Below the pieces are notes generated by a model. That model had not been told where the DNA came from. It was given only the letters and a program-made list of their open reading frames with translations, and did not search any database. Below, in pieces: positions 45,781-62,200 of a stretch of DNA of 64,000 bases. A program made the translations under genes and the position numbers. The stretch spans positions 22,038-86,037 of the forward strand of contig JBCCYL010000019.1 in assembly GCA_039189765.1 (NCBI GenBank). The letters are read 5' to 3'. Within the stretch, counting starts at the first letter, position 1, and each line of letters opens with the position of its first letter. Source of the stretch: Cyanobacteria bacterium P01_F01_bin.150 (GTDB taxonomy: Bacteria; Cyanobacteriota; Cyanobacteriia; CAKZMO01).

Positions 45781-45817
45781 AAAAGAAGCCAATAGAATAG
45801 TCGCTTAATAAATCTTA

Positions 45818-45897
45818 GAGTATCAACTTAAGGTGGGAAATGGGGGCGCGTCGCGCCCCCATTTCCCACAAACCTGTTCCACCTTACGTTGGAATCC
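45818..45897 (+). repeat. ~80-bp dispersed element (family A)
   Basis: GAGTATCAACTTAAG-GTGGGAAATGGGGGCGCG TCGCGCCCCCATTTCCCAC-...GTTCCACCTTACGTTGGAATCC. Confidence 0.75.
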
Positions 45898-46062
45898 GAA
45901 TCTTAAAATAATTACTGTTTGAATGATTTAGATAAATTAAATCTTCTCTGTAAATCAAATACCTTATTCAGATTAATCGACCAACAAGTAGAATTTACAT
46001 TGGCCATTGGTCGATACTAACACTAACGATTAATCAAGGTCGCTAAAAGATGTAGCCAGGTA

Positions 46063-46135
46063 GAGTTATATTCAACGGTGTGAGCGCGAAGCACATCAAC
46101 TGTCGGTTATTCTATTTCGGCTAAAACCAAAACCC
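46063..46135 (+). repeat. Family A element, highly degenerate
   Basis: Ends in TTATTCTATTTCGGCTAAAACCAAAACCC, like the 3' end of family A. Confidence 0.4.
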
Positions 46136-46431
46136 AGTACGAAAGACAACTGCAAAATGGGTTAACAAATAGATTATTTTTTCTAATATCTTTACAAATA
46201 AATTAAGTTTAAGACCTTATCTAAATAAGCTGATAAGAGTCACAGGCTCAAATTTACCCAGTTTTTGCGGAGAACCCGGAAAAGGTCCAAAGCCGCGCTT
46301 AACTTTCTCCTTGTATATACGGATGGATTTTAGTCGAATTTCCGGAAAAGTACTGAAGTAGCAAAGTTTCACTAGCGCTGAATGGTTCCTGTTGGTAGCT
46401 GTTTATTAATGTCTATATTGATCCTATCGCT

Positions 46432-47490
46432 ATGATCAATTTATGTTTTTCCCAGCTGTATCCCCCCATTCTGGAGCAAGTTTCCCAACGCTTAGTTCCT
46501 AAGGTGAACCAGCTTGTTTACTGCAATTGGCAGGATAAAGAACGAGCCATCATTAATTTTGAAGATAGAAATGTATCTAAATTAGGGACTAATAATGATA
46601 AAACCAGTTATTTAGAACCAGAGCAATGGTGGTCTGACTATCTAGTACCTGGAAAAATCCAAGAAATGTCATTAGGGTCAGAAAGTGCCTATATTTATCC
46701 ATTTGGAGCCATTCCTTTCTATCAGTATTGGTTGCTTTTATTAAATAGAACACTTACCCAAGAAGAGCGATCGCATCTTCAAAAGCAGGGCGAGCAGCTA
46801 CACCAATATTTAGAGCTTTATCGAAAAAACCAGCAGCAAGCAGCCAAAATTAAACTTTTAGAGCATGTTATTCAACGAACACAGCATCAGCTTCGCCATC
46901 CTCTTAGCTTAATCAAACTATATGCCAGTAACTTACAGCAAGAATTGCCCCATACAAGCCACCAAGCTCAGGCAAATACGATTTACAGCGTTGCTGATGA
47001 ACTGAGTGAGCATCTCTCAGATTTATTAGCCTATGGTGAAGGTGATTTTTTATCTCTTAACAGTCATAATTTACGCGACATACTGATTAAATCTATTGAA
47101 TCTCTTCAACCATTACTTCAAGAATATGGAGTAATGGTTGATTATCCTGATAGAGATGCGATCGCCTATATTGATGCTTGGAAAATCAAGCAAGTCTTTG
47201 ACAATTTATTAAGTAATGCAATTTACTTTAGCCCAGAAGGGAGCCATATTATATGGGATTGGCAAGTTTTCCAAAATGAAATTTTAGTCTCTATCACCGA
47301 TCAAGGCCCAGGTTTATCGGATCTTGACCTATGTCATCTTTTTCAGCCTTTTTACTCTAATCGCCAAAGTGGCCAAGGCCTTGGATTAGCCATTGCGCGC
47401 AAAATTATATTGGATCACAAAGGGCATCTATGGGCCGCAAACTGTCGAGCAGGCGGGGCCAGGTTTTCATTTTCCATTCCCACCGCGTAA
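46432..47490 (+). CDS. Sensor histidine kinase (cytoplasmic, HisKA + HATPase)
   Basis: H-box HQLRHPLS, N-box NLLSNAI, DQGPG and GLGLAI; no obvious TM helix. Confidence 0.9.
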   Translation: MINLCFSQLYPPILEQVSQRLVPKVNQLVYCNWQDKERAIINFEDRNVSKLGTNNDKTSYLEPEQWWSDYLVPGKIQEMSLGSESAYIYPFGAIPFYQYWLLLLNRTLTQEERSHLQKQGEQLHQYLELYRKNQQQAAKIKLLEHVIQRTQHQLRHPLSLIKLYASNLQQELPHTSHQAQANTIYSVADELSEHLSDLLAYGEGDFLSLNSHNLRDILIKSIESLQPLLQEYGVMVDYPDRDAIAYIDAWKIKQVFDNLLSNAIYFSPEGSHIIWDWQVFQNEILVSITDQGPGLSDLDLCHLFQPFYSNRQSGQGLGLAIARKIILDHKGHLWAANCRAGGARFSFSIPTA

Positions 47491-47573
47491 AAGAGCTTGA
47501 TTAAGTCAATACGGCAATAAAGATAAAGCCAAAGTTTAGTGGCTACCTATAAGAAATCGTTTAGGAGAACACC

Positions 47574-48464
47574 ATGCGTCAACTGCTTGACCCTTTCGCG
47601 AATAGCGTTTCAAAAAATAACATATCTCTTCATCCATCCCCAGAGATGTCAGCAGCGTCGCCACAGATAAAATCCAAGCATAAAGAGACCGAGGCTCCAA
47701 TCCCTAACACCCCTGGTTCTCCACAATCCTTTTCTTCACTATTAGCCACTCCATCTCCTTTTTCCCTACAGGCACCACCAACACCGACACTTAATCGGCA
47801 AACCGTTTCTATTTTACTAGTTGATGATGATGCGCGTTTCCGGCAAGGCATTCGCACTCTTTTAGGCTTTTGTGGAGATAAAGGCAACTACAACTTTGTC
47901 GTGGTTGGGGAAGCCGCATCTGGCAGACAAGCTCTTGAGCTGGTTAAAGAACAACATCCAATGCTAGTGATATTAGATGTTGAACTCACTCAGGGCAAAA
48001 TTGATGGCATCGAGGTACTGTCAGAATTACAAAAACAACCCAATAGGCCAAAAACACTAATGATGTCGGCCCATCAGGAAGATGACGTAATCTTTAGATG
48101 CATGCAGGCTGGGGCCTTTGGATATGTGCCTAAATCTCAGATTGCAGAACAGCTTTATAAAGCACTAACGACTGTACTACAAGACCAGGTTTATCTGGGG
48201 GCAACGAGTGCAACAGCCTTTTTCCGGATCTTTCATTTCCATGCTGGGCGATCGCTCCGTGCTTGTCAGGCCATCCATCTTAGTCCTCGTGAACATGAGG
48301 TTCTATCGTTCTTAGTAGAAGGATACTCCAACGAAACCATCGCAAAGTCCCTATATATTTCCGTTGCTACGGTGAAGGCCCATCTCACCTCTGTTTTTGA
48401 AAAGCTAAGCGTTAAGAGCCGTACGCAAGCAATTGTCGCGGCCTTGAAATTAGGGCTAGTCTAA
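47574..48464 (+). CDS. NarL/LuxR-family response regulator
   Basis: ILLVDDD, VILDV, GAFGYVPK and LSPREHEVL...SNETIA..L.IS..TVK.H; Pro/Ser-rich N-extension, so start uncertain. Confidence 0.92.
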   Translation: MRQLLDPFANSVSKNNISLHPSPEMSAASPQIKSKHKETEAPIPNTPGSPQSFSSLLATPSPFSLQAPPTPTLNRQTVSILLVDDDARFRQGIRTLLGFCGDKGNYNFVVVGEAASGRQALELVKEQHPMLVILDVELTQGKIDGIEVLSELQKQPNRPKTLMMSAHQEDDVIFRCMQAGAFGYVPKSQIAEQLYKALTTVLQDQVYLGATSATAFFRIFHFHAGRSLRACQAIHLSPREHEVLSFLVEGYSNETIAKSLYISVATVKAHLTSVFEKLSVKSRTQAIVAALKLGLV

Positions 48465-48531
48465 ATTGCAGGGATCACCCAGAAATTGCATTCCATGAAT
48501 AATCATTGCTTATCGTTGCAGTCAAATTAAG

Positions 48532-49416
48532 TTAACCAAAATTCTGCCAAGCTAATTTTGCAGCTCCCACCATTCCAGCCTGATTTCCCAACGAAGCCCG
48601 TAATAGTTTTAAGTTCGGTCGTGACGTTGGTAAAACCCGCCGTTCAATTTCAGATTGGGCGGCGGGCAGAAAAAACTCACAGCTTGCACTGACGCCGCCG
48701 CCAATGATAATCGCTTCTGGTGTCAACACGTAAAGTAAACTAGCCAACCCTGCTCCTAATTCCTGCCCATAGGTTTGCCAAAAAGCAATCGCTTTTTCAT
48801 CACCCAATTCAGCGCGATCGCCCAATTCTTTTGGCTCTAACCCTGTTCGTCGGCGAATGGCAGGAACGGACAAATACTGCTCCATTGATCCATTATTACC
48901 ACTGTTGCACTGGGGACCATTGGGATTCAGCGTAATTAATCCCAATTCGCCAGCCGTGCCGTGATGTCCTGTAAACAGATTGCCATTGAGAATAATTGCC
49001 CCTCCCACTCCTGTTCCAAGGGTGAGTAGAATCAAATTTTGATAGTCTGTTCCAGCCCCCAGCCAAAATTCCCCTAGTCCTGCACAGTTGGCATCGTTGG
49101 CTAAAATTACCGGGCGATTGCATCGCTTTTCTAGCCATGAGGCCACTGAAATATTCACCCAACCCTCTAAATTAATGGCCACGGTGGCAATGCGCCCTGA
49201 TACATCGGTAGGTCCAGGGGTGCCGATGCCAATTGCGCCTGCAACGTTGTAGGGATCGAGTTGAGCGATCGCCTCTACAAATTTTTCCAAGACAGCATTT
49301 GGTTGGGCCGGTTGGGGGGTATCCACCGTCAGGGATTGCAGACATTCACCCCTGCGATTGAACCGCCCCAGTTTAATCGCGGTTCCTCCCAAATCAATAC
49401 CAATAACTTGTTCCAT
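48532..49416 (-). CDS. ROK-family sugar kinase (glucokinase-like)
   Basis: GIDLGGT, ANDANCAGLGE, TLGTGVGG, GELG and CNSGNNGSME. Confidence 0.92.
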   Translation of the reverse strand: MEQVIGIDLGGTAIKLGRFNRRGECLQSLTVDTPQPAQPNAVLEKFVEAIAQLDPYNVAGAIGIGTPGPTDVSGRIATVAINLEGWVNISVASWLEKRCNRPVILANDANCAGLGEFWLGAGTDYQNLILLTLGTGVGGAIILNGNLFTGHHGTAGELGLITLNPNGPQCNSGNNGSMEQYLSVPAIRRRTGLEPKELGDRAELGDEKAIAFWQTYGQELGAGLASLLYVLTPEAIIIGGGVSASCEFFLPAAQSEIERRVLPTSRPNLKLLRASLGNQAGMVGAAKLAWQNFG

Positions 49417-50034
49417 GGCAACTTGCGCTCTCTACTTAGTCAAGTTCTTAGCCTATCGCAAAGTCCATGTATTGCCGTATCACTGAAGAATGCAAGAAAA
49501 GAAAGCTGCCCGGCATTGACTCGACACCGTTGTTTCATTAGCCCAGACAACTAAATGGCATATTGCCAGAAGCTGGTGCATCATTTGCGATGGCTCGTTG
49601 CTACTAATGGAAAAGGATACGGTCATATATATGTAACATCTGCCCATCGATTGCTTTAGAGAGAGCCTATATTTTAAGCTGTGCCATGGTGTGCTCCCTG
49701 CTCCACAACACAGTTAATGCCTTGCCAGCGTAAAATACAAGCCTCAAAGAGAAGCGATGAAGTCAGTAAAGACCTATCAATCGGTAGACTGGACTGGGAT
49801 AAGAGTACGATACACTCTGTTGCTGAGGGAGACATAAATCTAGTTAGTTAAAAGTTCTTTACTATACTGATTTTACCAGTTTGAAGACCTCTAATCTAAA
49901 ATTTAATGAGACCATTTAGACAACAGAAAAAATTATATTCACTCTCATAATCTAAATATTTTTATTTATTTTATCCATAATTTAGATTGATCTGGAATTA
50001 TTTTATAATCAATAAAAAATCGCACCGCTGAATA

Positions 50035-51030
50035 ATGAATATTATCAAAATTGGCATATTTCTTCCCCAGAAAAATCGTGAAAATGATCATGGATCAATC
50101 CATAAACCTTTATCTAATCGAATGCCAAATCAAGAAATACAAACCCTGATAAGTCTAATTGTTAATAGTGGAAAATTTGAATTATTTGAGATCAATAACT
50201 TCGAGGAATTAATTATATTTAATAACTCTGTTTTTCATGAAAGTACTAATTTAAGCAATGCTTTAGATGTCTTGTTTTGGTTTGGGGAAATCGGCAGAGG
50301 AGAGCAGAATTACTCCTTAGATATTTTAAAGGTAATTTCCCAAGCAGTAACAGTAATACCTAATCCTTATAGTTTTGAAATTGGATTGGATAAATACCTA
50401 TCTCATTTAACCTTAAAATCACAAGGGGTAAATGTTGCTGATTTTGTGTTGATAACCAATAAAAATTTCCATCTTGCACGCCCCATTTTAGATGAATGGG
50501 GATATGGACTTCTCAAACCTAGAAAAGGCGGATTTGGGAAAGGCGTAACGTTAATTGATAGCTTCTCAATGTTGCGTGATGTCGTTGAATATATAGAAAG
50601 TATTAATGGTTTGACAAATGAAGGGATGCTATTAGAGCGATACTATGACAATAGTCTTGATAAGTTTGTGAGTGTAACTCTTGTGGATGGTGAGATAATG
50701 TATGGGTACCGTAAGCGCCCTTCTAAAGTCACAGATTTAGGGAATGGACTGCAAAAAGTTTATGACGCGAATGAGATTGGTGGTGAAGTAGATATCTGTG
50801 ATGTCTTACCAGCACATGAAATCCAGGCATTAAGAGCAAACGATGCTATCGGGTCAGAAGTAATCGGATTTGATATGGTTTGGCACAACGGTCAGCCTAT
50901 TATTGTTGATGAAAACACGTTCCCAGGCATTTATGTTGATCTCTTCAAACAAAAAGGAATATCTTTAGCGGAAAAGATGTATCATCTAATTCTCAGAAGA
51001 GTTTATTCAAAATTTGATGTTCTTTACTGA
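50035..51030 (+). CDS. ATP-grasp ligase (RimK/LysX-like)
   Basis: DKYLSHLTL, LLKPRKGGFGKGV, LLERY, IGFDMV and IVDENTFPG; visibly AT-rich. Confidence 0.85.
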   Translation: MNIIKIGIFLPQKNRENDHGSIHKPLSNRMPNQEIQTLISLIVNSGKFELFEINNFEELIIFNNSVFHESTNLSNALDVLFWFGEIGRGEQNYSLDILKVISQAVTVIPNPYSFEIGLDKYLSHLTLKSQGVNVADFVLITNKNFHLARPILDEWGYGLLKPRKGGFGKGVTLIDSFSMLRDVVEYIESINGLTNEGMLLERYYDNSLDKFVSVTLVDGEIMYGYRKRPSKVTDLGNGLQKVYDANEIGGEVDICDVLPAHEIQALRANDAIGSEVIGFDMVWHNGQPIIVDENTFPGIYVDLFKQKGISLAEKMYHLILRRVYSKFDVLY

Positions 51031-51206
51031 GGTTTTTCACTATATATTTCACAAGTACATAGCGGAGTTTGACGAGCTGACGAGATAGGCTGAAAGGCAC
51101 TTAATCTGAATTCTATGGCTATTCTATGCCTGAGAATAATATTCGAGAATTTAAGCCTGCTGTGATGATCCTCTTTAACTGATATATGTCGGCAAGGAGC
51201 TAAGTA

Positions 51207-52427
51207 ATGACATCTACAACAACTGACACAAGCAATACTCTCTCAAAAAATACAGCGCCTTCATTTAACTGGTTCTTTTCTCTAAAATTGGCAGTTCTCT
51301 TCTTTTTATCAAGACTGCGCTTTATGCATAGCCTATTACCGTCTAGGATTCGAGAAGAATTACCAACTGGATGGAACTATAAAATGTTCTGGACAGCCTT
51401 TTCTACGGGAGGAAACAAGATATATTTTGACTTGTACTGTCGAACCAAAGAACCTCAAAACTATAAGCCAAAAGCCAACGTTACAGTACCTGACTTTCAA
51501 TTGACAGAAGAGCAGATCAAGTTTTTTCATGACAATGGCTATGTTGGACCCTTTGATCTGTTGTCTCCAGATGAAGTCAATGAGTTCAGAGAATACTGTT
51601 TCGACGTCCTGAATAAAGAGTCTCAGGTCTATAATCTCAGCCAAGGGGACTACTACTTCCAAGATGGAAAGAAACAAAATTCCTTATTGGGCGGCTATGA
51701 TGAACTCACAGATGAAGCAAAGAGCTACTTTGTTGAGCGGATAAATTTAGTGGATCGACATCTTGATAGTCCAAAGCTTTTACAGTTAATAAAGCGTCCA
51801 GAAATTATTGAGCGTTGTGCTCAAATTTTAGGAGAGAACCTGATTACTTGGCGTAGTCAATTTTTTACTAAGGAAGCTCACAAAGATGGGACGCCTTGGC
51901 ATCAGGCTAACGTTTGGTTCTTTGATAATTTCAAAGAACCAATTGTTCATTTAGCCGATGTGGAAGAAATTTCCCAATTGACCTTCTGGGTTGCAATCAC
52001 TGATGTAGATAAGAAAAGCGGTTGTATGAAAGTCATTCCAGGTTCACACAAAGAAATCTATCCAATTAACATCGATCAGTCTGGGGTTAATAGCCTTTAC
52101 GGATTTATTGGAGGATCTATAGACTATCCAACAGAGACTTCTCCTATAGACTATATCGAGATGAAAGCTGGACAATTCTTCTTGTTTAGTGAGCGAGTTA
52201 TTCATGGTTCTGTCCGAAATTCAACCGATGAGTTTGGCTTGGCGGTAAACTGTCGCGTTACGCGGACAGACACTCAAATTCACAATCATAAAGTGCTAAA
52301 AAAGGGAGCCTTCAGCATAGATATCTATGGGCTTGATCTTGGCCTTAGGAAATGGAGTACAGTCTTGTTGCGTGGTAAGGATGAATACGGCCTCAATCGT
52401 CTCTATCAAGACGAAAAAGAAGCCTAA
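51207..52427 (+). CDS. Non-heme Fe(II)/2-oxoglutarate halogenase-like enzyme (SyrB2/BarB/CytC3 family, PhyH fold)
   Basis: DRHLD...RPEI..R...ILG.NL..WR..FF.K...GT.WHQA: HxA (codons 51900-51908) replaces HxD/E; LTFWVAITD, GCMKVIPGSH, MKAGQFFLF and distal IHGS. Confidence 0.8.
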   Translation: MTSTTTDTSNTLSKNTAPSFNWFFSLKLAVLFFLSRLRFMHSLLPSRIREELPTGWNYKMFWTAFSTGGNKIYFDLYCRTKEPQNYKPKANVTVPDFQLTEEQIKFFHDNGYVGPFDLLSPDEVNEFREYCFDVLNKESQVYNLSQGDYYFQDGKKQNSLLGGYDELTDEAKSYFVERINLVDRHLDSPKLLQLIKRPEIIERCAQILGENLITWRSQFFTKEAHKDGTPWHQANVWFFDNFKEPIVHLADVEEISQLTFWVAITDVDKKSGCMKVIPGSHKEIYPINIDQSGVNSLYGFIGGSIDYPTETSPIDYIEMKAGQFFLFSERVIHGSVRNSTDEFGLAVNCRVTRTDTQIHNHKVLKKGAFSIDIYGLDLGLRKWSTVLLRGKDEYGLNRLYQDEKEA

Positions 52428-52471
52428 GTATCATCTTTTTCAAAAGAATCACATAATTTTTGGAGGTATCA

Positions 52472-53317
52472 ATGCCGGATAAAGAGCCCATCACAATTAT
52501 TCGTGATCTACCGCCTGGTTTTTCTAAAACTTTGGCACAAGAAATTTCTCAAGCAACATCTTTACAGTGGCTCAATCAGGTCTTTAAGATCTACACCAAC
52601 CCACCGCCTAGCATGATTCCACTCTTTAACAAAAGTGGAGATGCATCTCAAATCCTTATAGAAGAGTGTAATGCAGTGCCCACTTCCGAGATGAAGAAGT
52701 TACCCATAATGCATTCATTTCTCAACCGCTCTGGTCTTTCTTTGCTATTAGTTCGCCTAATTAAGTTGGCTCCAGGTGCACGTGTTATTGAGCATCTAGA
52801 CTACTGTGACTTGTATGGGCCAGAGAAGGTTAGACTACATATCCCTATCGTAACGACTCCTGATTGTCGTGCATTTTTTCAAGGTAGAGCAGTGCATCTG
52901 AGTCCAGATGCCATCTGGATGTTTCGCCCCAACACTTCCGTTCATGCTTATTTAAATGGCAGTATAACAAGACTTCACTTGATAATAGATGCATACGTAG
53001 ACGACGAATTACGTCATGAAATCGAGAACGGTTATTTACCGCAAAAAAACGTTGAACTCCTACCCAAAGCTTCTTCAATAACATATGAAAAACTGCTGAA
53101 TACAGCAGAGTATTTAGTCACTGAGAATCAACATGAACTAGCAGAAGAATTACTACTTAGAACCATTTTCAAATATGACCAGCCATCAGGCTTTACACTT
53201 GACTTAATTATACGTTTGTACAAGAAATGTGGTGTTCCTGAAAAAATCGAAGAATGGAAGGCTAGAAAAGCCCAGCTTCTACGCCAACCAAAAGTCAATG
53301 CATTACAAAGGTATTAA
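52472..53317 (+). CDS. Asp/Asn beta-hydroxylase-like Fe/2OG oxygenase with a helical C-terminal extension
   Basis: RLIKLAPGARVIEHLD (HxD), RLHIPIVT and VHAYLN...RLHLIID; GGAGG RBS at 52462-52466. Confidence 0.8.
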   Translation: MPDKEPITIIRDLPPGFSKTLAQEISQATSLQWLNQVFKIYTNPPPSMIPLFNKSGDASQILIEECNAVPTSEMKKLPIMHSFLNRSGLSLLLVRLIKLAPGARVIEHLDYCDLYGPEKVRLHIPIVTTPDCRAFFQGRAVHLSPDAIWMFRPNTSVHAYLNGSITRLHLIIDAYVDDELRHEIENGYLPQKNVELLPKASSITYEKLLNTAEYLVTENQHELAEELLLRTIFKYDQPSGFTLDLIIRLYKKCGVPEKIEEWKARKAQLLRQPKVNALQRY

Positions 53318-53344
53318 ATTCGTTTCGCTAGAATACCTCTGAAT

Positions 53345-53424
53345 GGATTTCATTTTAAGGCGAAGCAAAGTTAACAGTAGTGGGGACGATTCACGACCCC
53401 ACTACTGTCCTAAAGTTGAACCCC
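53345..53424 (-). repeat. ~80-bp dispersed element (family A) inside the biosynthetic cluster
   Basis: Reverse complement: GGGGTTCAACTTTAGGACAGTAGTGGGG...CCCCACTACTGTTAACTTTGCTTCGCCTTAAAATGAAATCC. Confidence 0.8.
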
Positions 53425-53477
53425 ACTGAAGAATATTTAATAGAAGTCTGTGCTGTTCATTATGTATTTGTGTAATT

Positions 53478-54662
53478 ATGCCCCATTCTTCAATGATTTC
53501 ATCGCCACCCCTACCGCAAAAAGCTCGATTCTTAGCACCTGAATATCATCAATACATCCAAAACATAGAGTCATTTCTAAAAAGCCTTTGCGTTCAATCG
53601 AATCAACTCGATCGTGATCCTAATAAATTACGGCGGGCTTTTAATCGATTAGGAGAAGTTGGACTTTTAGGTATCAACGGTCCACAGCAATGGGGTGGTA
53701 AGCAGTTACCCTCATCTGCATTTTGCCGAGTTCAAGAAATAATGTCTCGTTACTCGGGAGCATTGGCGTTTGTCCAAAATCAGCATCAAAATGCAGTGTC
53801 AAAAATTTCTGACTCTACTAATAAGGAACTTAAGAGACGTTATCTTTCTAATGCTATTCAGGGTCAAATAGGCATTGGAGTTGCTTTTTCCCATCTGCGT
53901 CGGCTTGATCAGCCGTGCATGGGCGCTGAACCTGTTTCGGGAGGCTACCGCATCAGTGGTCAAACGCCTTGGATAACAGGGTATGGTTTTTTTCAATTCT
54001 TTATTCTGGCCGCTACCTTGCCTGACCGGCAAGTACTGTTAGGATTGTTGCCCTTTGACTCGATTAAGCACCATGATGGAAGTATTACTCTCAGCGAACC
54101 CATGAGACTCGCCTCTATGACATCTACGAATACAGTCCAAGCCTCTCTAAAGCAGTGGTTTCTACCAACTAAAAACGTTATTGGCTTTAAGGATAAAGAT
54201 TGGATTCACCAAAGCGATCGCATCAACATACTCAATCATTTCTTTATTGTGGGCTGTGCTCGTGCAGGCTTGGATGTTCTAGAAAAGGCATCACATAAAC
54301 CCTATGCATCGTCCCATATTCGTTCAGCTTGGGCTGCGTTGGATCAACGCCTTAACCAATGTTGTCAGCAAATTTATCAAGCTCAAGTCCAGGCTGAAGC
54401 TCTCAAAAATGAAGGCATTGAGGGCAAAGATCTGGATCAGCATGTACAGTATTTTATTCAACTTCGAGCACAAGCGATTGACTTGGCTGCTCGTTGTGCC
54501 CATGCTGCTGTCATTGTGTCACGGGGCGCGGCTAATGTTCTCGATCATCCTGCTCAACGAATTTATAGGGAATCACTTGCATTCAGTGTGTTTGGTCAAA
54601 CGCCCCCTGTGATGGAGGCTAGCCTTGCTCAGCTTGTACAGCTAAGCAGTTCTATAGATTGA
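53478..54662 (+). CDS. Acyl-CoA dehydrogenase-family flavoprotein
   Basis: LGEVGLLGI..P.QWGG, SGALAFVQNQH, YRISGQTPWITG and HPAQRIYRE. Confidence 0.85.
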   Translation: MPHSSMISSPPLPQKARFLAPEYHQYIQNIESFLKSLCVQSNQLDRDPNKLRRAFNRLGEVGLLGINGPQQWGGKQLPSSAFCRVQEIMSRYSGALAFVQNQHQNAVSKISDSTNKELKRRYLSNAIQGQIGIGVAFSHLRRLDQPCMGAEPVSGGYRISGQTPWITGYGFFQFFILAATLPDRQVLLGLLPFDSIKHHDGSITLSEPMRLASMTSTNTVQASLKQWFLPTKNVIGFKDKDWIHQSDRINILNHFFIVGCARAGLDVLEKASHKPYASSHIRSAWAALDQRLNQCCQQIYQAQVQAEALKNEGIEGKDLDQHVQYFIQLRAQAIDLAARCAHAAVIVSRGAANVLDHPAQRIYRESLAFSVFGQTPPVMEASLAQLVQLSSSID

Positions 54663-54675
54663 TGAGGCGATCGCC

Positions 54676-55401
54676 ATGAATATCCAGCTACCTGATACTT
54701 GGACCCATGACAAAATCTATACTCACCGATATCAAACCCCCAACCAAATTGCTGAGGTGATTGACGAGTTAAGATTAGCAGAAGCTGGCAATCTTCTGGA
54801 TATGGGTTGTGGAAATGGGGCTTTCGCCATAGCTGCATCTCAGCGTTTTCCAGATTGCCAAATCATTGCAATTGATCCGCTTCCGTCAGCAGTTGAAGAA
54901 TGTCAAAAGCGAGTTATGCAGGCCAAGCTACAGAACATATTCATCCAGAAATCTTCTATAGAATGCATTCCCTTGAAGGACAATTGTGTTGATCGTCTTT
55001 TGATGCGTAACGTTATTCATCATTTAGATAATATTGAGCTTGCCTTAAAGGAAGCCTGTCGTGTGCTTTCACCCAATGGACGCATTTTACTTGAAGCACC
55101 TTGTAATATCGGAAGCATACCGTTAGCCCAACTTCTTAGCGATATTTATTTCAAAATGGATGCATCCCACCGACGGACCTTTCATACGCCAAAGTTCATT
55201 TCATCTGTCCTAGATATTTATGAAGTCAAGCACCAATCACAAAAGATATGGCAACGTTCCTCAATCATGTCATCTCAGGTAGTTTCCCTAATTCATCAGT
55301 CTCACATGGCAGATCAATTAAATCTACAGAACAATGAAGACGGCAAGTGGATTATTAAGCTGAATTTTATGAGAATCCTTGCTCAAAAGATCTGTCCGTG
55401 A
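54676..55401 (+). CDS. Class I SAM-dependent methyltransferase
   Basis: LLDMGCGNG motif I, AIDP, IPLKDNCVD, VIHH and EACRVLSPNG. Confidence 0.88.
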   Translation: MNIQLPDTWTHDKIYTHRYQTPNQIAEVIDELRLAEAGNLLDMGCGNGAFAIAASQRFPDCQIIAIDPLPSAVEECQKRVMQAKLQNIFIQKSSIECIPLKDNCVDRLLMRNVIHHLDNIELALKEACRVLSPNGRILLEAPCNIGSIPLAQLLSDIYFKMDASHRRTFHTPKFISSVLDIYEVKHQSQKIWQRSSIMSSQVVSLIHQSHMADQLNLQNNEDGKWIIKLNFMRILAQKICP

Positions 55402-55554
55402 TAGTTCTCAGCAAAGAATCCGTGGACAACCGTCTACTCAAAGCTAGTCCATTTGCTCTATAAAATATAGATATTTACAACTCATTGAAGGGCACTCTAG
55501 AGAAAACATAGGCAAATGGGCAAACAAGACCTGGTACCCTCTGGAGGAGACTCA

Positions 55555-56475
55555 ATGACGCTGCCAAATTTTTTAATTATTGGGGTTCAAAAAGCTGGAA
55601 CTTCATCTATCTATGAATACCTCAAGCAACACCCCGATGTCTACATGAGTCCACTCAAAGAAACCAACTTTTTATCACGGGATTGGAGTTTAGAGGAACC
55701 AGATAAACAAAAACAGCGTAATGAACGATTGCGGAACCAAGGACGTCGAGAATGTATTGACTCCATTGAAAAATATCGAGAACTGTTCGATGGGGTAACT
55801 ACTGAAACTGCCATTGGTGAGGCGTCACCCAACTATTTATTTCGTCCCCAGGCGATCGCCCAAATTAAGAAATACGTTCCTGAAGCTAAACTAATCGCTA
55901 TTTTACGTAATCCGGTAGAACGGGCCTACTCAGATTATCTCATGCATATGCGAGAAGAAATCCAGGGCAAACCTTTATCCGAGCAAATTGCCTGCTATCA
56001 CCAACATCAGTCTTTTACTATCCTCAAGGGTTTTTATAGCCAACAATTAAGACTCTATTGGCAACAGTTTGACTCTAGAAAAATTAAAGTTTATCTCTAC
56101 GATGATCTTTGTGCTGATCCAATAAGAATGATACAGGATATGTATGATTTTATTGGAGTAGACTCATCATTTCAGGTGGATATATCTCAGCGCAAGCAGG
56201 TGGCTAAAGTACCAAAAAATCGATGGTTTAATCAGTTGTTACGGACTCAAAATCCCATCCGAACTACTGCTGCTGCCGCATTAAAGCAATTACTGCCAGA
56301 AATTACTCGACAGCAGATTCGAACTCAACTAATCAATTGGAATTCTCAAGATAAAAGGCAAGTTTCACTATTGACTACAGGGGATCGACAGCAGCTCTTA
56401 GAAATTTACCGCAATGATATTCAAGAGCTTCAGGATTTAATTAATCGCGACCTATCCCAGTGGCTTACGGCATAA
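55555..56475 (+). CDS. Sulfotransferase (PAPS-dependent)
   Basis: 5'-PSB loop IIGVQKAGTSS, KETNF, GEASPNY and ILRNPVERAYS; GGAGGA RBS upstream. Confidence 0.92.
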   Translation: MTLPNFLIIGVQKAGTSSIYEYLKQHPDVYMSPLKETNFLSRDWSLEEPDKQKQRNERLRNQGRRECIDSIEKYRELFDGVTTETAIGEASPNYLFRPQAIAQIKKYVPEAKLIAILRNPVERAYSDYLMHMREEIQGKPLSEQIACYHQHQSFTILKGFYSQQLRLYWQQFDSRKIKVYLYDDLCADPIRMIQDMYDFIGVDSSFQVDISQRKQVAKVPKNRWFNQLLRTQNPIRTTAAAALKQLLPEITRQQIRTQLINWNSQDKRQVSLLTTGDRQQLLEIYRNDIQELQDLINRDLSQWLTA

Positions 56476-56700
56476 TTAAAGAAATCTTTCAGTATTTTAT
56501 ATGCCTTATTTTGGGGGATCAGATGATCAGATTATATAGAGTGTTGACTCTCAAACAATACACTATCATCAAAAACTTTAAATGTTTAGAATTATTTTTT
56601 ACGCCCATAAAAACTTGCATTCATAGGTCATTATAGGCATAAAAAATCGCCATAAACGTCAACCAATAGCTTCTAACAGGAGAAAAATAAGCTAATGACT

Positions 56701-56868
56701 GGGTATCAACTTTAGACCAGTAGTGTGGGTGCAATGCGCCCACACTACTATTAATTTTGTTTCGTTTTAAAACGAAACCCCGCTACAGGATTCCAACGAT
56801 AAGGCGGAACGAATTTGCGGAAAATGGGGGGGCATCATGCCCCTATTTTTCATTTTATGTTGTTACCT
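56701..56868. repeat. Two family A elements, tail to tail
   Basis: Plus-strand copy at 56701-56780 (GGGTATCAACTTTAG...GTTTCGTTTTAAAACGAAACCC) and minus-strand copy at 56788-56868, which resembles the 45818 subtype. Confidence 0.8.
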
Positions 56869-57196
56869 ACGCCACAAAACAGTATAAAATACTACTATTG
56901 AACCGAAATTTAAATGGAGAAAAAAGAGACGATATGGGCGTGCATCTCACTAAAACCATTGTGATAGGATGTTGGTTGGCTAAAATTTTGGTGATTTTAG
57001 GCTCCTGGGAATCATTTAAAACTTTTAATGCTGAAGCTACAATAGATAAGGGATCCCTTATCTATTGTCAGTTGGCAGAGGCGTGTTCTTCAGAAAAATC
57101 TAAAAATCTAGCTCAATTTATAGATTCAGAATCAACTATAGATAAGTATCCTCAAAAAACTACAACCTAACCTAGTCTTAGAATGGTTCTCTAATA

Positions 57197-57257
57197 TTCA
57201 AAAGTTCAACGTTCGCATCTAAAAAGTCTCTTTAGATGCGAACGTTGAACTTTTGAA
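57197..57257. repeat. Perfect 27-bp inverted repeat
   Basis: TTCAAAAGTTCAACGTTCGCATCTAAA-AAGTCTC-TTTAGATGCGAACGTTGAACTTTTGAA. Confidence 0.85.
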
Positions 57258-57298
57258 CTGGGTATTTTAGTGAGCGTCTAATTTTAATATATCTTACA

Positions 57299-57468
57299 GG
57301 TTCCGTTTTGGCTTAAAACTTAAGCCGAGGAAAATCTAATGGGAAATTGGGGTGCGAAGCACCCCAATTTCCTGCCCTAAAATACAAGTCTCCATTTTAA
57401 TATGAAACAACATTAACGATGATGGGGAGAGTGCCCCACACCACCCTAACTACCTAGAGTAAATGCTC
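57299..57468 (-). repeat. Two degenerate family A-like elements
   Basis: Central hairpin GGAAATTGGGGTGC-GAA-GCACCCCAATTTCC (~57342-57372) and a second copy at 57388-57468 with GTTAATGTTGTTTCATATTAAAATG on the minus strand. Confidence 0.55.
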
Positions 57469-57648
57469 TAATTTATCTCTAAATCAATATAAAAAATAGC
57501 TAAAATTAAGTGCATATTTATACCGAAAATTGTTAGTTAGTTATGGATATACGGGAATATTGAAAATAAGATATGAACATCATGAACTGATATTATTCCT
57601 TAGACATGGTGTTTTCAGGGACTGCATTATAAAGGAATCGAATTTAAG

Positions 57649-58221
57649 ATGATTCAAGATTTGGAGCTGATCACCACCTTTATGGAAAAATCCTTGAAAA
57701 AGGAAAATGTGGAATATAGAAGTAATCACTTGAAAGCCCATACTATTTGCAATAATAATCAACTCTTGGCAAAAAATGAAGGTATTGTTGCAGCTATTCA
57801 TTTAACCCAAGATCCATTATGTTTTATAGTCAAACTCCGCTCTTTATATTGGGAACTTATTAACGAGATGTTAATGGATAAAAGCTTTATCCCATTAGAG
57901 AGTAAAAGTGGCATTGACTTTTATCGATATCAGCACTGTGCCATTCCCCAAGCCTATGAAATCTATTGCACTAACCCTCGCCAGTTATGGCAACAATGGT
58001 GGATAAAGAGTCGAAATCAAAAGAGTTCTTTTTTTGCTTTTGATTTTCTCATTCGTACTCGTAATGCCTGGTATCCAGTGCAAGATATCATTATTGAGAA
58101 GCAGTCAATTAGTATAAAAACCTTGGGGTCTGCAATCCCTCTTATCGAGACAGACATAGTGATATGGCTACAAAAAAAGTTATACCAACGACAACTACCT
58201 ACACGACCCATGCAACACTGA
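57649..58221 (+). CDS. Hypothetical protein
   Basis: 190-aa ORF with ATG start and protein-like composition (LWQQWW, WYPVQDI); no function recognised. Confidence 0.7.
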   Translation: MIQDLELITTFMEKSLKKENVEYRSNHLKAHTICNNNQLLAKNEGIVAAIHLTQDPLCFIVKLRSLYWELINEMLMDKSFIPLESKSGIDFYRYQHCAIPQAYEIYCTNPRQLWQQWWIKSRNQKSSFFAFDFLIRTRNAWYPVQDIIIEKQSISIKTLGSAIPLIETDIVIWLQKKLYQRQLPTRPMQH

Positions 58222-58351
58222 CGTCATCGTCCGACAAGCATCAAGACTGTTTGCCTCCAGTCTAAAGGAATCCCATTCTATTCCAGGGCAAGGTGCTCCA
58301 CCTTATAATGATTTGGTCGCCTCTTACACGTTTAGAGTTAGGGTTGCCATT

Positions 58352-59284
58352 ATGCATCAATCTACCCAAAATTCTGCTCTTCGTATTCCTGCCCCACTGC
58401 AATTAGGCGATCGCCTCTGTGTCATATCTCCTAGTGGCACTTTACGAGAAAGGGAAGCCTTTGATGCAGGAATTAAAATTTGGCAAGACCAAGGCTATCA
58501 AATTGATTATGCAGAAGGCTATGATAGCCGCTGGGGCTATCTAGCAGGAACAGATAAAGAAAGGCGATCGCAACTACAGCAAGCATGGATAAATCCTGAC
58601 TGCAAAGGCATCCTCTGTTCACGGGGTGGTTACGGAGGCAGTCGCTTACTCGAACAGTGGCAGTGGCCCGCTAAAGCAAACGACGGAAGTCCTCTATCTG
58701 CTAAATGGATCATTGGATTCTCTGATATCACCAGCCTGTTGTGGAGTCTCTATATCCATGGCATTTCTGGCGTTCATGGTCCCTTATTGACAACGTTATG
58801 CCATGAACCGGAGTGGTCAATACAGCGATTATTTGCATGGGTAGAGGGGCGTTTCTCCACAATGCCAGCTCTTGAAGGAGACGGCTGGATAGGTGGCCAA
58901 GCATCCGGTCTTTTATTGCCCGCTAATTTAACTGTTGCCACGCATCTTTTAGGAACTTCATTGCAGCCTAATTTGGATGGGGTAATTCTAGCCTTAGAAG
59001 ATGTGGGAGAAGCACCCTATCGTATTGATCGCATGCTAACCCAGTGGCGAATGATGGGAGCTTTAGAAAAAATTAAAGGCATTGCCCTGGGGCGTTTCAG
59101 CAAATGTAAAGGGTCAGAAAGGATTCCAAGCTTAACAATCGAAGAAGTGTTGCGCGATCGCCTCTGTGACCTAAATATTCCCATCGTGGCCAATCTTCCC
59201 TTTGGCCACGATGGAGTCAACGCTGCGCTGCCTGTAGGTGTGCAAGCCACTTTAGACGGTACTACAGGGCAACTAAAGTTTTAA
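58352..59284 (+). CDS. ldcA: LD-carboxypeptidase (peptidase S66)
   Basis: [34 protein letters not shown] and PFGH. Confidence 0.92.
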
Positions 59285-62200
59285 TAGGCTTGTCCATTAC
59301 CGCTGGGCTGAGCCAAATTTCTAAACCGAGTAAATTGCGGTTCAAACAGAAGTTTGACAGTGCCCACTGGACCATTTCGATGCTTGGTAATAATCACCTC
59401 GGCAATGCCGCGATCGGGTGTGTCTGGATTGTAGTATTCATCGCGATAGAGCATCATGATTAAGTCAGCATCTTGTTCAATTGAGTTGTGGACAACTATG
59501 TTATTTGCAATGAAATTATGATGTTCTGGAACTGTTAAATCAAACACCTCTTCCATACCATCTGGTTCGATAGATGTGATTGTATCCCAATATAAATCAC
59601 TCGTTGCTAACTGAGATAATTTTGATGAGTTTACGATTTTTGCTACTTTTTTAGCCCTTTCTCTACCAAGATTACAAGTGTATAAAGATGTTCCGCAGTA
59701 TTTTTGCCCCATTGCCGATTGCACTTCACGTAAGTTTAGATTAGCTGCTTTCATTGATGGGACTACGTAGTTTTTCCATGCTTGCAAAGGGATAACATCT
59801 CGATTGGTATTGGCGACGCGTTGCTCCAGATATTCTGCTATCTGATGAAGGGCTGCCAGTTTGTATTTGCCTACTGCACCGACCTTATTGATAAACAACT
59901 CCAAGTCTGTTTTGCCTGTAATTATCACATGATGCTGAAGACGACCTTTATCATCTTGCCCAACGGATTTACATCGAGCATTTATCCCTAATCTTAGGAG
60001 CAGCGATTGTACATTTTGTGCCAGTTTCCTGCTGCTGCTAGCATAGAACGCTATCGGACGAAGTCGTTTACCTTCAACTAGCTTGATGCAACCATCCGTA
60101 CTCCATAAATGTCTGAGAAAAACACCAATAGCTCTGGTTGGCTGTTGAAAAACTTCATTTGGAATAAATTTTTCATGAGAGCGAAGTCCAAAAATCCCTA
60201 GTTCCTGAAACCATGACGATACTGGATTTTTGATGCCATGGGTTAAATGTTGGGCTGAGGGTAAATAAACTTGATACCAGGTGCGTTCGGCCTTGATACG
60301 GGGTTTTAATGCATGCCCAAAGATTTGAGTAGCTAAGTCAACAACAGTTTGGGCCAAATCATATTCACGACTCGTATATTGTATGGAGTGCCGTGGTAAC
60401 GTACAGCCGTCCCCAATTAAATGTGCTATGAGGGCCAATTCTTGGTCTGAAAGTGTTTGTACATATTCAGATGAAATTTTTCTTGGCAATGCAAGACGAT
60501 CACCTACATTTAATTCATCCAATCGCTTCCAACCATCAAATGCGCGAAACTTATGATTGGCAGTAGCTCTAATACTACGACCTAGTCGAGTTGTAAGTCT
60601 GAAAACAGGCTTTGTCCCTGTGCAAAAAGCATTGCTCACTCTTGCTGTTTCAATTTTGAATGTTTCCTCATTCAGTGCCCAAATCTGAAAATCCGATGCT
60701 CCAGCTAAAGTGCTAATGGGAACTTGCTCTCCTGTTTGCGCCAGAGTGATGAGGGTATCTCCCGTTAAGCAGCCCGATTCCCTGAGGTCAGACATCATGG
60801 GACGCTTATTCGTTCTTGACTCTACTCCACGACTAAGCTGAGATAACGTAATAATAGGTACGTTTAATTCACGAGCTAGCTGTTTAAGCGCTCGCGTCAT
60901 TTTCGACAATTCTTGAACACGATTGTCTCCTCCACCTTCCATTAGTTGGAGATAATCAATGAGGATTAGTCCCAATGCCCCCCCCTGTTCAGCTTGGAGG
61001 CGACGACACTTAGAGCGGATTTCGTTCACTGTAATATTGGCCGTATCATCGATAAAAATTGGTATTTGGGACAGACTATCAATCGCATTCGACAATGGTG
61101 CCCACTCGTGTTGACTAAGGCGACCGCTTCGTAAGCGTCCACTTTCCACCTGAGCCTCACTGGACAGTAAACGATAGACAAGCTGCTCCTTGGACATCTC
61201 CAAGCTAAAGATAGCGATGGGAAGCTTGGTGCTGGAGGCTGCGATATTGCGAGCAATGTTCAAAACAAAACTTGTGTTATGAACACAAATATCATTGGCT
61301 ACAAAGTTATGGGTGTCGGGAATTGTCAGGTCGTAAACTTGACCGTCTCCCACATAGTCAATAGCAATGATTTCATCCCAATACACATCACTGGTGGCTA
61401 AATTTTGCAGCGATTCATCGTCTAGTGCGATCGCCAATGACATCAGGCGATCGCGCGATAACGATCGTTTACCTACATGGATGTTGCTAGTACCTTCTAA
61501 TCCAACTCTTTTAGCTAAAGAAGTCCAACTTTCATTACCTTTTGCCAACGCTAGATGATTCCAAATGCCAACAGGTACTAGATCCCGACTAGTGTGTGGC
61601 TTGCGGTGGGCAATTGCGGATTCAACTGCTAAAACCGCCTCTTCTTTGCCAAATATTCCAATGTCATCAATAAAATTCCGAATGGAGCAGGCATCTGTAA
61701 TATCAAGCTGCCATGCTATTCGATGATGACCATCATATTTTACCGAGCGCTTTTTAAGAGATGCAATCACTCCAAATCGCAATAGCAAATGTTGAGTTTG
61801 CCGAGCTAAAGTCTCACTAACACTTGCGTATCCTAATTGCGCCTGTCCAGAGGTCAAGACGCTTGCCCAACCATCCGTGGCAAATAATCGATTAAGAAAC
61901 AGGGCAAGCTGCGATCGCTCCAGGCGAAATACCATCTTGGGGATGAATTTTGTGTGGGAATCCGTACCCCATAAATCTAATGCCTGTAGCCAAGCCGTCA
62001 AATTGTCTTGACCAGCCATGTGTCGCCGTTGAGCAAGGGCATCTTTATCTTGGGATACTCGAAAGCTAGTTGCACGCTTTCCGTTGGAGTTGTCTCTTTG
62101 AATGCTCAGATTGCCAAACTGCTCTATGGATCTTTGAAAATCAGCTTGGATGACTGGATTAAGGTTGGTAAAACTAGGACAGGTATGGGTTAAGCAACTA

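Follow-up and report, generated by a model that had tools for sequence, protein, structure and literature searches.

We analyzed a 64,000-nucleotide stretch of Cyanobacteria bacterium P01_F01_bin.150 (GenBank assembly GCA_039189765.1, contig JBCCYL010000019.1, positions 22,038 to 86,037 of the forward strand). We call this whole stretch the window and count all coordinates from its first letter. Six intact, co-oriented open reading frames (ORFs) on the + strand span 50035-56475 and encode a set of tailoring enzymes that includes a predicted radical halogenase. These genes possibly constitute one accessory operon for a small amino-acid-derived metabolite made independently of nonribosomal peptide synthetases (NRPS) and polyketide synthases (PKS), an assignment to which we give somewhat less than an even chance. 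An earlier sequence-only reading had proposed six co-oriented genes of the same families; its coordinates proved exact, and every family-level identity was confirmed. The genes, with a promoter-like and a terminator-like pattern at their borders, are as follows.

49981..50009, + strand: sigma-70-like promoter match, TTTAGA-17-TATAAT, 10 of 12 matches; pattern only
50035..51030, + strand: ATP-grasp ligase of the RimK/LysX clade, 331 amino acids; predicted amide-bond former
51207..52427, + strand: long-form SyrB2/CytC3-like Fe(II)/2-oxoglutarate (2OG) halogenase, 406 amino acids; H232-Q-A234, H333
52460..53317, + strand: Fe(II)/2OG hydroxylase resembling free-L-proline hydroxylases, 285 amino acids; HxD...H
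53478..54662, + strand: flavoprotein-like protein with the acyl-CoA dehydrogenase (ACAD) fold, lacking the canonical catalytic glutamates, 394 amino acids
54676..55401, + strand: class I S-adenosylmethionine-dependent methyltransferase, 241 amino acids; Methyltransf_11
55516..56475, + strand: sulfotransferase of the 3'-phosphoadenosine-5'-phosphosulfate (PAPS) type, 319 amino acids; Sulfotransfer_3
56719..56749, + strand: terminator-like G+C-rich hairpin, 14-pair stem with 8 GC pairs; pattern only

We favor a single operon because the genes share one orientation, short gaps, and a common lower G+C content and are preceded by a promoter-like site and followed by a hairpin. The gaps measure, in order, 176, 32, 160, 13, and 114 bp, the two tightest being the halogenase-hydroxylase (32 bp) and ACAD-like-methyltransferase (13 bp) junctions. 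The promoter-like site lies 26 bp ahead of the ATP-grasp start codon and has the top score within 49300-58400. In 2-kb windows, the cluster stretch has a G+C of 0.36-0.43, compared with about 0.44-0.50 across most of the window. The six genes have a G+C of 0.35-0.45 and a third-codon-position G+C (GC3) of 0.28-0.38; most flanking genes are higher (0.44-0.51), and the GC3 of a few of them overlaps the cluster range (e.g., a histidine kinase at 0.34). The cluster is bounded by genes for a ROK-family sugar kinase (48532-49416, - strand) and an LD-carboxypeptidase (58313-59284).

The halogenase (51207-52427) matches the PhyH family (PF05721, 2.4e-26; 93.8 bits, passing the Pfam cut-off of 22) and, in two stretches, the TIGR01762 "chlorinating enzyme" model (3e-42; 144.9 bits, under its cut-off of 226.3). 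Its top solved matches are SyrB2 (7.5e-28) and CytC3 (1.8e-27). Residues H232-Q233-A234 align with the HQA of both enzymes and H333 is the distal histidine, bearing out the earlier description of an HxA Fe/2OG enzyme; H-Q-A here replaces HxD. At the third triad position, 32 aligned relatives carry Ala (23), Ser (5), Asn (2), Thr (1), or Gly (1) and none carries Asp or Glu (0/32); the position is likewise non-acidic in 71 of 73 copies from related loci. The full catalytic set, H232/A234/H333/R350, is intact, its members being invariant or non-acidic across the family. The alignment to SyrB2 begins only at residue 96. The first 95 residues form a family-conserved block without a SyrB2 counterpart, which includes the motif LPTGWNxxMFWTAF, and about 24 residues additional to SyrB2 lie between positions 127 and 181. 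Residues 19-40 form a moderately hydrophobic helix (mean Kyte-Doolittle value about 1.3) that contains Lys and Arg and falls under the usual transmembrane threshold. In the protein search, the window's own ATP-grasp ligase and hydroxylase were returned at 100%, on a contig of 86,037 bp, and its own halogenase was not, the best halogenase match being at 88%.

We then considered the genomic settings of the halogenase family, for which a scan of species-representative genomes gave 76 loci. In an 81-row tree from a quick maximum-likelihood search, with a few spurious opposite-strand ORFs as the outgroup and Shimodaira-Hasegawa-like approximate likelihood ratio test (SH-aLRT) support, the window halogenase joins those of Jaaginema (L001), Spirulina (L002), and Geitlerinema (L003) with a support of 100, within a 30-row clade with a support of 99. 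These three are its closest halogenases, 68-72% identical over the tblastn alignment. Around 20 loci of this clade, we scanned 157 ORFs within about 6-7 kb (65 of the 126 listed plus 92 of the 107 listed), and none contained a PP-binding, condensation, AMP-binding, or ketosynthase domain. The neighbors are amino-acid, amine, and betaine enzymes, including second 2OG oxygenases and methyltransferases: AlaDH/PNT and saccharopine dehydrogenases, Orn/DAP and Orn/Lys/Arg decarboxylases, aspartate decarboxylase, gamma-butyrobetaine-hydroxylase (GBBH)-like TauD enzymes, SET-domain proteins, and class I methyltransferases. Candidate amide formers also occur near clade halogenases, namely, asparagine synthase at three loci (L020, L021, and L054) and other ATP-grasps at two (L027 and L032). 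An amide former, a halogenase, a second oxygenase, and a methyltransferase are thus a recurrent combination in the clade; the window's particular genes are not recurrent. Because the halogenase's own clade sits in carrier-free, amino-acid-type neighborhoods, these contexts favor a free-standing substrate over the classical SyrB2 mode.

The window itself presents the same picture. PP-binding, condensation, and ketosynthase domains were absent from the 45 window ORFs scanned, and neither an adenylation nor a thioesterase gene was found in or beside the cluster. The only AMP-binding gene of the window (34483-36495) lies 13.5 kb upstream, amid housekeeping genes. A six-frame scan of the 64-kb window returned no double CxxC, no LysW-like acidic tail ([DE]W[GAS][DE] at the C terminus), and no DSL motif of acyl carrier proteins. 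The sequence-only reading had reported no adenylation, condensation, ketosynthase, or carrier gene in the window; for the surroundings of the cluster, both scans agree. Its further suggestion, a LysW-like carrier loaded by the RimK/LysX-like ligase, found no such motif in the window, and we dropped the idea on the strength of that empty scan. It had also seen no convincing precursor ORF, and we likewise found no convincing precursor-like small ORF in the 618-bp upstream region or between the cluster genes.

The hydroxylase (52460-53317) falls in Asp_Arg_Hydrox (PF05118, 6.6e-8). Its database copy starts 4 codons later, and the true start is probably at 52472. The only PDB matches at E<=0.1 are proline 3-hydroxylase (1e5r, 2.4e-8) and L-proline cis-4-hydroxylase (4p7w, 3.9e-8); relaxing the threshold to E<=1 adds one match, a ribosomal protein that is probably due to chance. 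The HxD (H-L-D), distal His, and Arg region align with 1e5r (query residues 25-262) and 4p7w (56-229), and the C-terminal helical domain aligns with that of 1e5r. The earlier assignment to the HxD Fe/2OG oxygenases holds, with the triad aligned to proline hydroxylases. Look-alikes in the Atlas combine Asp_Arg_Hydrox with Pro_3_hydrox_C. Six database entries, the window's own among them, are 80-100% identical over their full length with an invariant core. Both reference proline hydroxylases use free amino acids. The window enzyme resembles the free-L-proline-hydroxylase type through remote similarity (E about 1e-8) and would be a candidate for action on free proline or pipecolate.

The ATP-grasp ligase (50035-51030) matches the Pfam RimK family (PF08443, 1.3e-6), and its best NCBIfam matches are MptN (7.3e-12), the RimK family (1.7e-11), and LysX (2e-9), with CofF also among the alpha-L-glutamate ligase matches. 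All of the bit scores compared fall under the curated cut-offs (RimK family, 44.0 versus 143.4; LysX, 37.0 versus 275.6; MptN, 44.9 versus 350). An AlphaFold2 model built from a 51-sequence alignment reached a mean predicted local distance difference test (pLDDT) score of 90.4. In Foldseek comparisons the model matched RimK (4iwx, E 5.6e-17, TMq 0.67) and ArgX/LysX (TMq 0.66-0.69), and it is about equally like RimK, ArgX/LysX, D-Ala-D-Ala ligases, and DcsG (TMq 0.60-0.69, 13-19% identity). K161, E201, D280, and N294, which we take to be nucleotide- and Mg-binding residues, are invariant in the 51 family sequences. The family comprises 58 proteins including the window's own record, and the 57 other relatives reach Chloroflexota, Streptomyces, and Patescibacteria; tblastn against 72,556 plasmids returned no plasmid homologue. 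Sequence and model together place the protein as a divergent member of the RimK/LysX branch, a placement from which donor and acceptor cannot be read.

RimK itself modifies ribosomal protein S6, which gives a precedent for reading the cluster as one for a ribosomally synthesized and posttranslationally modified peptide (RiPP). In such a system, a ribosomal peptide or protein would be the common target of the RimK-like ligase, the halogenase, the two transferases, and the hydroxylase in the role of an "Asp/Asn beta-hydroxylase." The Pfam placement of the hydroxylase in Asp_Arg_Hydrox and the presence of the graspetide ligase PsnB among the structural matches of the ATP-grasp model (rank 36, TMq 0.59) are consistent with this proposal. 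However, graspetide ligases rank under RimK, Ddl, ArgX, and LysX and are absent from the sequence-profile matches, the precursor search described above came up empty, and at E<=0.1 the PDB offers the hydroxylase no matches besides free-proline hydroxylases. We consider a RiPP-like system very improbable and rejected the graspetide variant for its weak similarity and the missing precursor.

The ACAD-like protein (53478-54662) matches Acyl-CoA_dh_N (PF02771, 2.2e-10), and its AlphaFold2 model (pLDDT 94.2) has the three-domain fold, with a Foldseek TMq of 0.78 against human isovaleryl-CoA dehydrogenase (IVD) and 0.72-0.78 against ACADs. A profile search of the PDB returned ACADs at 2.5e-29; the ACAD-fold N-oxygenases DnmZ, KijD3, and nitrososynthase at about 1e-16; and DszC at about 1e-12. 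The position of the medium-chain acyl-CoA dehydrogenase (MCAD)-type glutamate (YEGT) is G373, and this column holds G (43), A (19), S (5), Q (1), or P (1) in the family, with Glu in 0 of 69; the position of the IVD-type glutamate (DLER) is I249. The family (107 representatives at E<=1e-30) instead conserves the motifs QxQHQSA, FSHLRR, and HPAQRxYRE, with Q102 and R361 invariant. Because both canonical catalytic glutamates are absent, we set the protein apart from ordinary dehydrogenases and conclude that it is no canonical acyl-CoA dehydrogenase. The sequence-only label of "acyl-CoA dehydrogenase-like" is thus right about the fold and doubtful as to a dehydrogenase role. Two of 15 relatives scanned (P0153 and P0155) carry a C-terminal fusion to PF04199, a "putative cyclase" that is kynurenine-formamidase-like, and several others have N-terminal extensions of about 115 residues without a family assignment. 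These fusions and extensions may be a clue to the chemistry of the family.

The ACAD-like protein also bears on a second alternative, that the carrier is encoded elsewhere in the genome and acts in trans. The halogenase would then chlorinate an aminoacyl- or acyl-S-carrier in the manner of SyrB2 and CytC3, and the ACAD-fold protein would work on the thioester, for example by chloride-displacing cyclopropanation (KtzD/KtzA-like) or oxidation of a prolyl carrier (PigA/RedW-like). KtzD/KtzA cyclopropanation belongs to kutzneride biosynthesis; our literature search returned nothing on this precedent. SyrB2 and CytC3 are the best solved matches of the halogenase, the dehydrogenase base is missing from the ACAD-like protein, and that protein has weak NCBIfam matches to PigA (3.4e-5) and RedW (5.1e-5). 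Distant members of the halogenase family adjoin PKS, AMP-binding, and thioesterase genes. Moreover, a published network table lists a 48%-identical long-form relative (P0010; Spirulina sp. SIO3F2, F6J87_25085, 402 amino acids) in cluster 1 with SyrB2-type "chlorinating enzymes" (PMC13489965). Carrier, adenylation, and thioesterase genes are, on the other hand, lacking in and next to the cluster, and none was found at the 20 annotated loci of the window's clade. The conserved extra N-terminal domain and the insertion of about 24 residues have no SyrB2 counterpart, and the hydroxylase resembles enzymes of free amino acids. On balance, a trans-acting carrier seems rather improbable to us, and we retain a free-standing substrate as the preferred reading of the halogenase.

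The last two genes are generic by comparison with known enzymes. The methyltransferase (54676-55401) is a generic class I protein (Methyltransf_11, 1.4e-20) whose nearest characterized structures are N-methyltransferases, a match confined to the Rossmann core from which the acceptor atom is not assignable. The sulfotransferase (55516-56475) matches Sulfotransfer_3 (2.6e-18) and Sulfotransfer_1 (1.2e-15) and, in the PDB, an uncharacterized bacterial sulfotransferase (3rnl, 1.6e-41), followed by heparan-sulfate sulfotransferases (3e-12). Its translation contains KAGTSS and RNPVERAYS, which we presume to be the PAPS-binding motifs.

To describe what accompanies the halogenase family more broadly, the 824 neighbor ORFs of the 76 loci were clustered and representatives were scanned against Pfam. 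Short-chain dehydrogenases occur at 15 of the 76 loci and Sulfotransfer_3 proteins, second most frequent, at 10. Fewer loci have AMP-binding enzymes (7/76, on distant, about 30%-identical branches), GBBH-like TauD oxygenases (6/76), AlaDH/PNT, saccharopine dehydrogenase, or cupin proteins (4/76 each), SET-domain proteins (3/76), or Orn/Lys/Arg decarboxylases (3/76). The 10 Sulfotransfer_3 loci (L015, L016, L022, L024, L029, L031, L035, L043, L063, and L067; 14 copies), mostly from Pleurocapsales, often combine the sulfotransferase with type I/III PKS, ketoacyl synthase III (KAS III), fatty-acid desaturase, ICMT methyltransferase, flavin adenine dinucleotide (FAD)-dependent halogenase, and weakly AurF-like genes. 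Their content resembles that of clusters making alkylresorcinols or lipids that are chlorinated and sulfated.

Such loci raise the question of whether the window cluster could tailor a chlorinated, sulfated lipid or lipo-amino acid resembling a chlorosulfolipid, with the ACAD-fold protein acting on the acyl chain and the ATP-grasp ligase adding a head group. The frequency of Sulfotransfer_3 in lipid-type loci, the moderately hydrophobic helix at halogenase residues 19-40, and the ACAD fold itself are compatible with this route. Yet the lipid-type loci lie on other, more basal tree branches and their sulfotransferases do not match that of the window; the hydrophobic segment, with its Lys and Arg, is sub-threshold for a membrane helix; the ACAD-like protein lacks the catalytic Glu; and the cluster has no acyl-activating or ketosynthase gene. 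We therefore regard lipid tailoring as quite improbable, having down-weighted the chlorosulfolipid reading because the sulfotransferase-bearing loci belong to other branches.

We searched for the window's own genes around the other halogenases with tblastn (E<=1e-5) and with profiles (ATP-grasp and ACAD-like) or phmmer (the remaining proteins) on the 824 neighbor ORFs (E<=1e-3). The ACAD-like protein was found at 0 of 76 loci by tblastn and at one (L072) by profile, and the methyltransferase had weak tblastn matches at 3 of 76. The window's ATP-grasp ligase, hydroxylase, and sulfotransferase were found at none of the 76 loci by either approach. Close relatives offer a partial exception. A hydroxylase (P0147, 82%) and an ATP-grasp ligase (P0088, 84%) are each on a contig of 21,777 bp, for which the protein search listed no halogenase; a hydroxylase (P0146, 84%) and a halogenase (P0001, 88%) are each on a contig of 4,692 bp. 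Judging from the equal contig sizes, ATP-grasp-hydroxylase and halogenase-hydroxylase pairs appear to recur in close relatives at 82-88% identity. The sequence-only reading had named conservation of the set in other genomes as a test of its proposal, and this test largely fails: none of the 76 loci has it, and the two contigs carry pairs only.

Several observations weigh against a single operon with a free-standing substrate, and we collect them here. Besides the absence of shared genes from the 76 loci, the L001-L003 halogenases occupy a gene cluster different from that of the window. Outside the window, gene pairs were seen on only two metagenomic contigs of close relatives, and the pairing on each is read solely from matching sizes in base pairs. 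Promoter-like sites total 20, compared with 25.5 +/- 5.7 in shuffles, so there is no excess and the upstream site is a pattern match only; so is the hairpin, which lies 244 bp past the sulfotransferase stop and has a weak T-tail (ATTAATTTTG). No transporter, regulator, or PAPS-supply gene lies inside the cluster. The network grouping of F6J87_25085 with SyrB2-type enzymes points toward a carrier. So do the closest solved and characterized relatives, SyrB2 and CytC3, which need carrier-tethered substrates. Because none of the 76 loci shares the genes and the closest halogenases sit in a different cluster, the six-gene set looks like a recent mosaic, and co-function of all six is at most putative.

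In its full form, the mosaic explanation holds that the six genes came together only recently in an accessory island and act on different substrates, either singly or in two or three sub-groups. An example would be an ATP-grasp and hydroxylase module with an inserted halogenase next to a separate module of ACAD-like protein, methyltransferase, and sulfotransferase. The distributions of the families differ accordingly (6 near-identical hydroxylases, 57 other ATP-grasp relatives, and 107 ACAD-like representatives), and the nearest kin of the halogenase live in another cluster. The G+C content is also unequal inside the cluster (0.346 for the ATP-grasp gene and 0.445 for the ACAD-like gene), and the gaps of 160-176 bp have room for internal promoters. 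Anabaena sp. CRKS33 (L013, 936-6585) carries a 45%-identical long-form halogenase 3.6 kb from an orthologue (71.5%) of the ROK kinase, with genes for a tautomerase, a 2-hydroxyacid dehydrogenase, a short-chain dehydrogenase/reductase, and an amine oxidase instead of the window's genes. This different set suggests that the site is variable, and the place beside the ROK kinase may be a slot for accessory genes. However, all six genes are intact and co-oriented, the tightest junctions (32 and 13 bp) join the halogenase to the hydroxylase and the ACAD-like gene to the methyltransferase, and both kinds of pairs appear again in relatives that are 82-88% identical. Other clade members likewise have amide formers, second 2OG oxygenases, and methyltransferases in the vicinity of the halogenase. 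We judge a mosaic of unrelated functions to be unlikely, although more probable than the other alternatives.

Under the single-operon reading, a pathway can be sketched whose substrate, step order, action of all six proteins on one molecule, and chemical detail we infer. In a first step, the proline-hydroxylase-like enzyme would hydroxylate a free amino acid, for which the most plausible candidates are a proline/pipecolate-type imino acid and a lysine-derived one; an imino-acid substrate is possible because the hydroxylase is proline-hydroxylase-like. The long-form halogenase would then chlorinate an unactivated carbon of a substrate that is either free-standing or already ligated. Third, the RimK/LysX-type ATP-grasp ligase would form an amide bond with a second amino acid, which may act as a handle, as glutamylation does in the beta-ethynylserine (Bes) pathway. 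The methyltransferase and the sulfotransferase would next cap a heteroatom, the simplest case being O-sulfation of the new hydroxyl. Finally, the ACAD-fold protein might perform non-canonical chemistry, such as amine or heteroatom oxidation or a chloride-displacing ring closure. The chlorine would be either kept in the product or cryptic.

Taken as a whole, this sketch corresponds to a broader proposal that we hold tentatively and consider on the unlikely side. The long-form halogenases would be an uncharacterized, mainly cyanobacterial branch of the SyrB2 lineage that acquired an N-terminal domain of ~95 residues and works carrier-free on amino acids, amines, or small amides. Here, one of them would have been recruited, along with the other five enzymes of the cluster (the RimK-type ligase, the proline-hydroxylase-like orphan, the ACAD-fold enzyme without its glutamates, the methyltransferase, and the sulfotransferase), to make a chloro-, hydroxy-, methyl-, and sulfo-decorated dipeptide-like metabolite, a structural type unreported from cyanobacteria. 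The chlorinated, hydroxylated, methylated, and/or sulfated small peptide or amide of the sequence-only reading fits the gene families and the carrier-free context, but the gene set is poorly conserved.

The neighborhoods of related halogenases include further gene sets that are of interest in their own right. In a recurrent cluster at L001 (5511-14450), and also at L003, L005, and L011, one or two long-form halogenases accompany an AlaDH/PNT-type dehydrogenase, a saccharopine-dehydrogenase-type enzyme, a methyltransferase, a cupin, and a thiamine pyrophosphate (TPP) enzyme. L001 and L003 share the AlaDH/PNT-type dehydrogenase, the saccharopine-dehydrogenase-type enzyme, the methyltransferase, and a second halogenase paralogue, and L001 has in addition the cupin and the TPP enzyme. 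At L002 there are a cupin and a further halogenase copy that runs off the contig end, and at L011 the AlaDH/PNT-type dehydrogenase is fused to the methyltransferase. The L001/L003/L005/L011 cluster looks like one for halogenation in a lysine-, opine-, or polyamine-type pathway, and we found no published description of it in the open-access literature. At L021 (4473-12548), and also at L034, L054, and L020, two gamma-butyrobetaine-hydroxylase-like TauD enzymes flank the halogenase and are joined by an asparagine synthase, an aspartate decarboxylase, a tandem-domain methyltransferase, and a ureidoglycolate-lyase-like protein. The content of these loci, which come from sponge- and tunicate-associated cyanobacteria, suggests that their product is chlorinated and either betaine-like or derived from beta-alanine.

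The window comes from the chromosome of a filamentous cyanobacterium and includes hetR (311-1216), pheS, surE, ribF, miaA, ddl, and dnaB. An Rfam scan of 44000-64000 returned no riboswitch or leader RNA; its only match was a sub-threshold miRNA model on a hairpin at 57196-57258, which is surely spurious. This hairpin lies in an AT-rich stretch past the cluster (56476-58312, G+C about 0.33-0.37) that holds two ORFs without a family match (56757-57170 and 57649-58221) and long perfect hairpins at 57204-57250 (20 pairs) and 57342-57372 (14 pairs). The DnaB replicative helicase (59281-63270, - strand, 1329 amino acids) is split by two inteins, with Intein_splicing matched in two stretches and LAGLIDADG_3 homing-endonuclease domains also present. 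Farther away, 22583-29572 (- strand) contains a 1482-amino-acid ORF (25124-29572) followed by ORFs at 24222-24959, 23211-24158, and 22583-23155, none of the four having a Pfam match at E<=1e-5, with a gene for a Hint_2-domain protein (30459-31688) nearby. A lone Pvc16_N-domain protein, of a contractile-injection-system component type, is encoded at 45247-45792 (- strand), and no other contractile-injection-system genes were found among the scanned window ORFs.

What appears to be new is this gene combination, a SyrB2-lineage halogenase seemingly freed of its carrier, and an ACAD-fold family without the catalytic base; the enzyme superfamilies and the pathway logic are already known, and the set is confined to a narrow lineage. 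Our search of the open-access and bioRxiv literature found no characterized long-form member and no description of this gene combination. Known families of free-substrate radical halogenases are few (BesD/Hal, WelO5, AdeV/AdaV, AspX, and BtnX), and more are wanted as biocatalysts that selectively chlorinate, brominate, or azidate C-H bonds. If the long-form clade proves carrier-independent, the classical SyrB2 lineage would also have escaped the carrier requirement, and about 70 related loci in amino-acid, betaine, polyamine, and lipid contexts would become targets for mining. The six genes may specify a new small metabolite, chlorinated and sulfated, of a cyanobacterium of the heterocyst-former type. 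Should the set be a mere chance mosaic, the finding shrinks to six individually ordinary tailoring genes.

The individual enzymes relate to known ones in different degrees. The hydroxylase shares with the L-proline hydroxylases 1e5r and 4p7w the HxD...H and the 2OG-binding Arg region, and with 1e5r the C-terminal helical domain as well, but it is distant from both (E about 1e-8) and its family consists of 6 near-identical sequences. The ACAD-like protein has the three-domain fold of the ACADs (IVD and short-chain acyl-CoA dehydrogenase) and of the ACAD-fold oxygenases (DnmZ, KijD3, nitrososynthase, and DszC), from which it differs by Gly and Ile at the MCAD and IVD glutamate positions and by its family-specific motifs. 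Among the carrier-dependent aliphatic halogenases SyrB2, CytC3, BarB, and CmaB, the first two are the best sequence matches of the halogenase, and it has in common with this group the HQA...H iron site without a carboxylate and the PhyH fold family. Unlike them, the window enzyme has about 95 extra N-terminal and about 24 inserted residues, a TIGR01762 score below the cut-off, and no thiolation or adenylation partner nearby or at the 20 annotated loci of its clade.

At the level of pathway, the closest parallel is the Bes pathway of Streptomyces cattleya, in which a free amino acid is chlorinated by BesD and ligated to glutamate by BesA, and the resulting gamma-Glu dipeptide is hydroxylated by BesE (PMC8341276; bioRxiv 10.1101/2025.10.10.681649). 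The two systems are alike in being NRPS independent and in combining a ligase that uses ATP with two Fe/2OG enzymes, one of them a halogenase. They differ in that the window halogenase is SyrB2-like, with BesD-type structures absent among its PDB matches, that the window cluster has no BesB (pyridoxal phosphate) or BesC (HemeO-like) gene, and that it has, in addition, ACAD-fold, methyltransferase, and sulfotransferase genes. The available portions of these sources name BesA an "ATP-dependent ligase," so the ATP-grasp label given to it by the sequence-only reading was not confirmed (PMC8341276; bioRxiv 10.1101/2025.10.10.681649).

A second parallel comes from Kipouros and Chang (Nature 2026), who mined AlphaFold models for His2-Ala/Gly sites and noted carrier-independent candidates that adjoin amino-acid transporters and ATP-grasp ligases (PMC13489965). 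AspX of Vibrio campbellii was confirmed in vitro as a free L-aspartate 3-chlorinase, and BtnX chlorinates biotin (PMC13489965). Like the window halogenase in our preferred reading, AspX is a carrier-independent radical halogenase of the PhyH/cupin type beside an ATP-grasp gene, a context from which a free amino-acid substrate was predicted. AspX belongs to "cluster X," whereas the 48%-identical relative of the window halogenase belongs to cluster 1; genes for an amino-acid transporter and a transcription factor accompany AspX, and the window lacks both and carries four additional tailoring genes. The long-form clade is thus computationally flagged in that source (PMC13489965), with no sign found of further study. 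Given the published Bes logic and the pairing of AspX with an ATP-grasp gene, the "undescribed route" of the sequence-only reading was too strong a term (PMC8341276; bioRxiv 10.1101/2025.10.10.681649; PMC13489965). We conclude that the six genes are plausibly a lineage-restricted variation on an established pathway logic.

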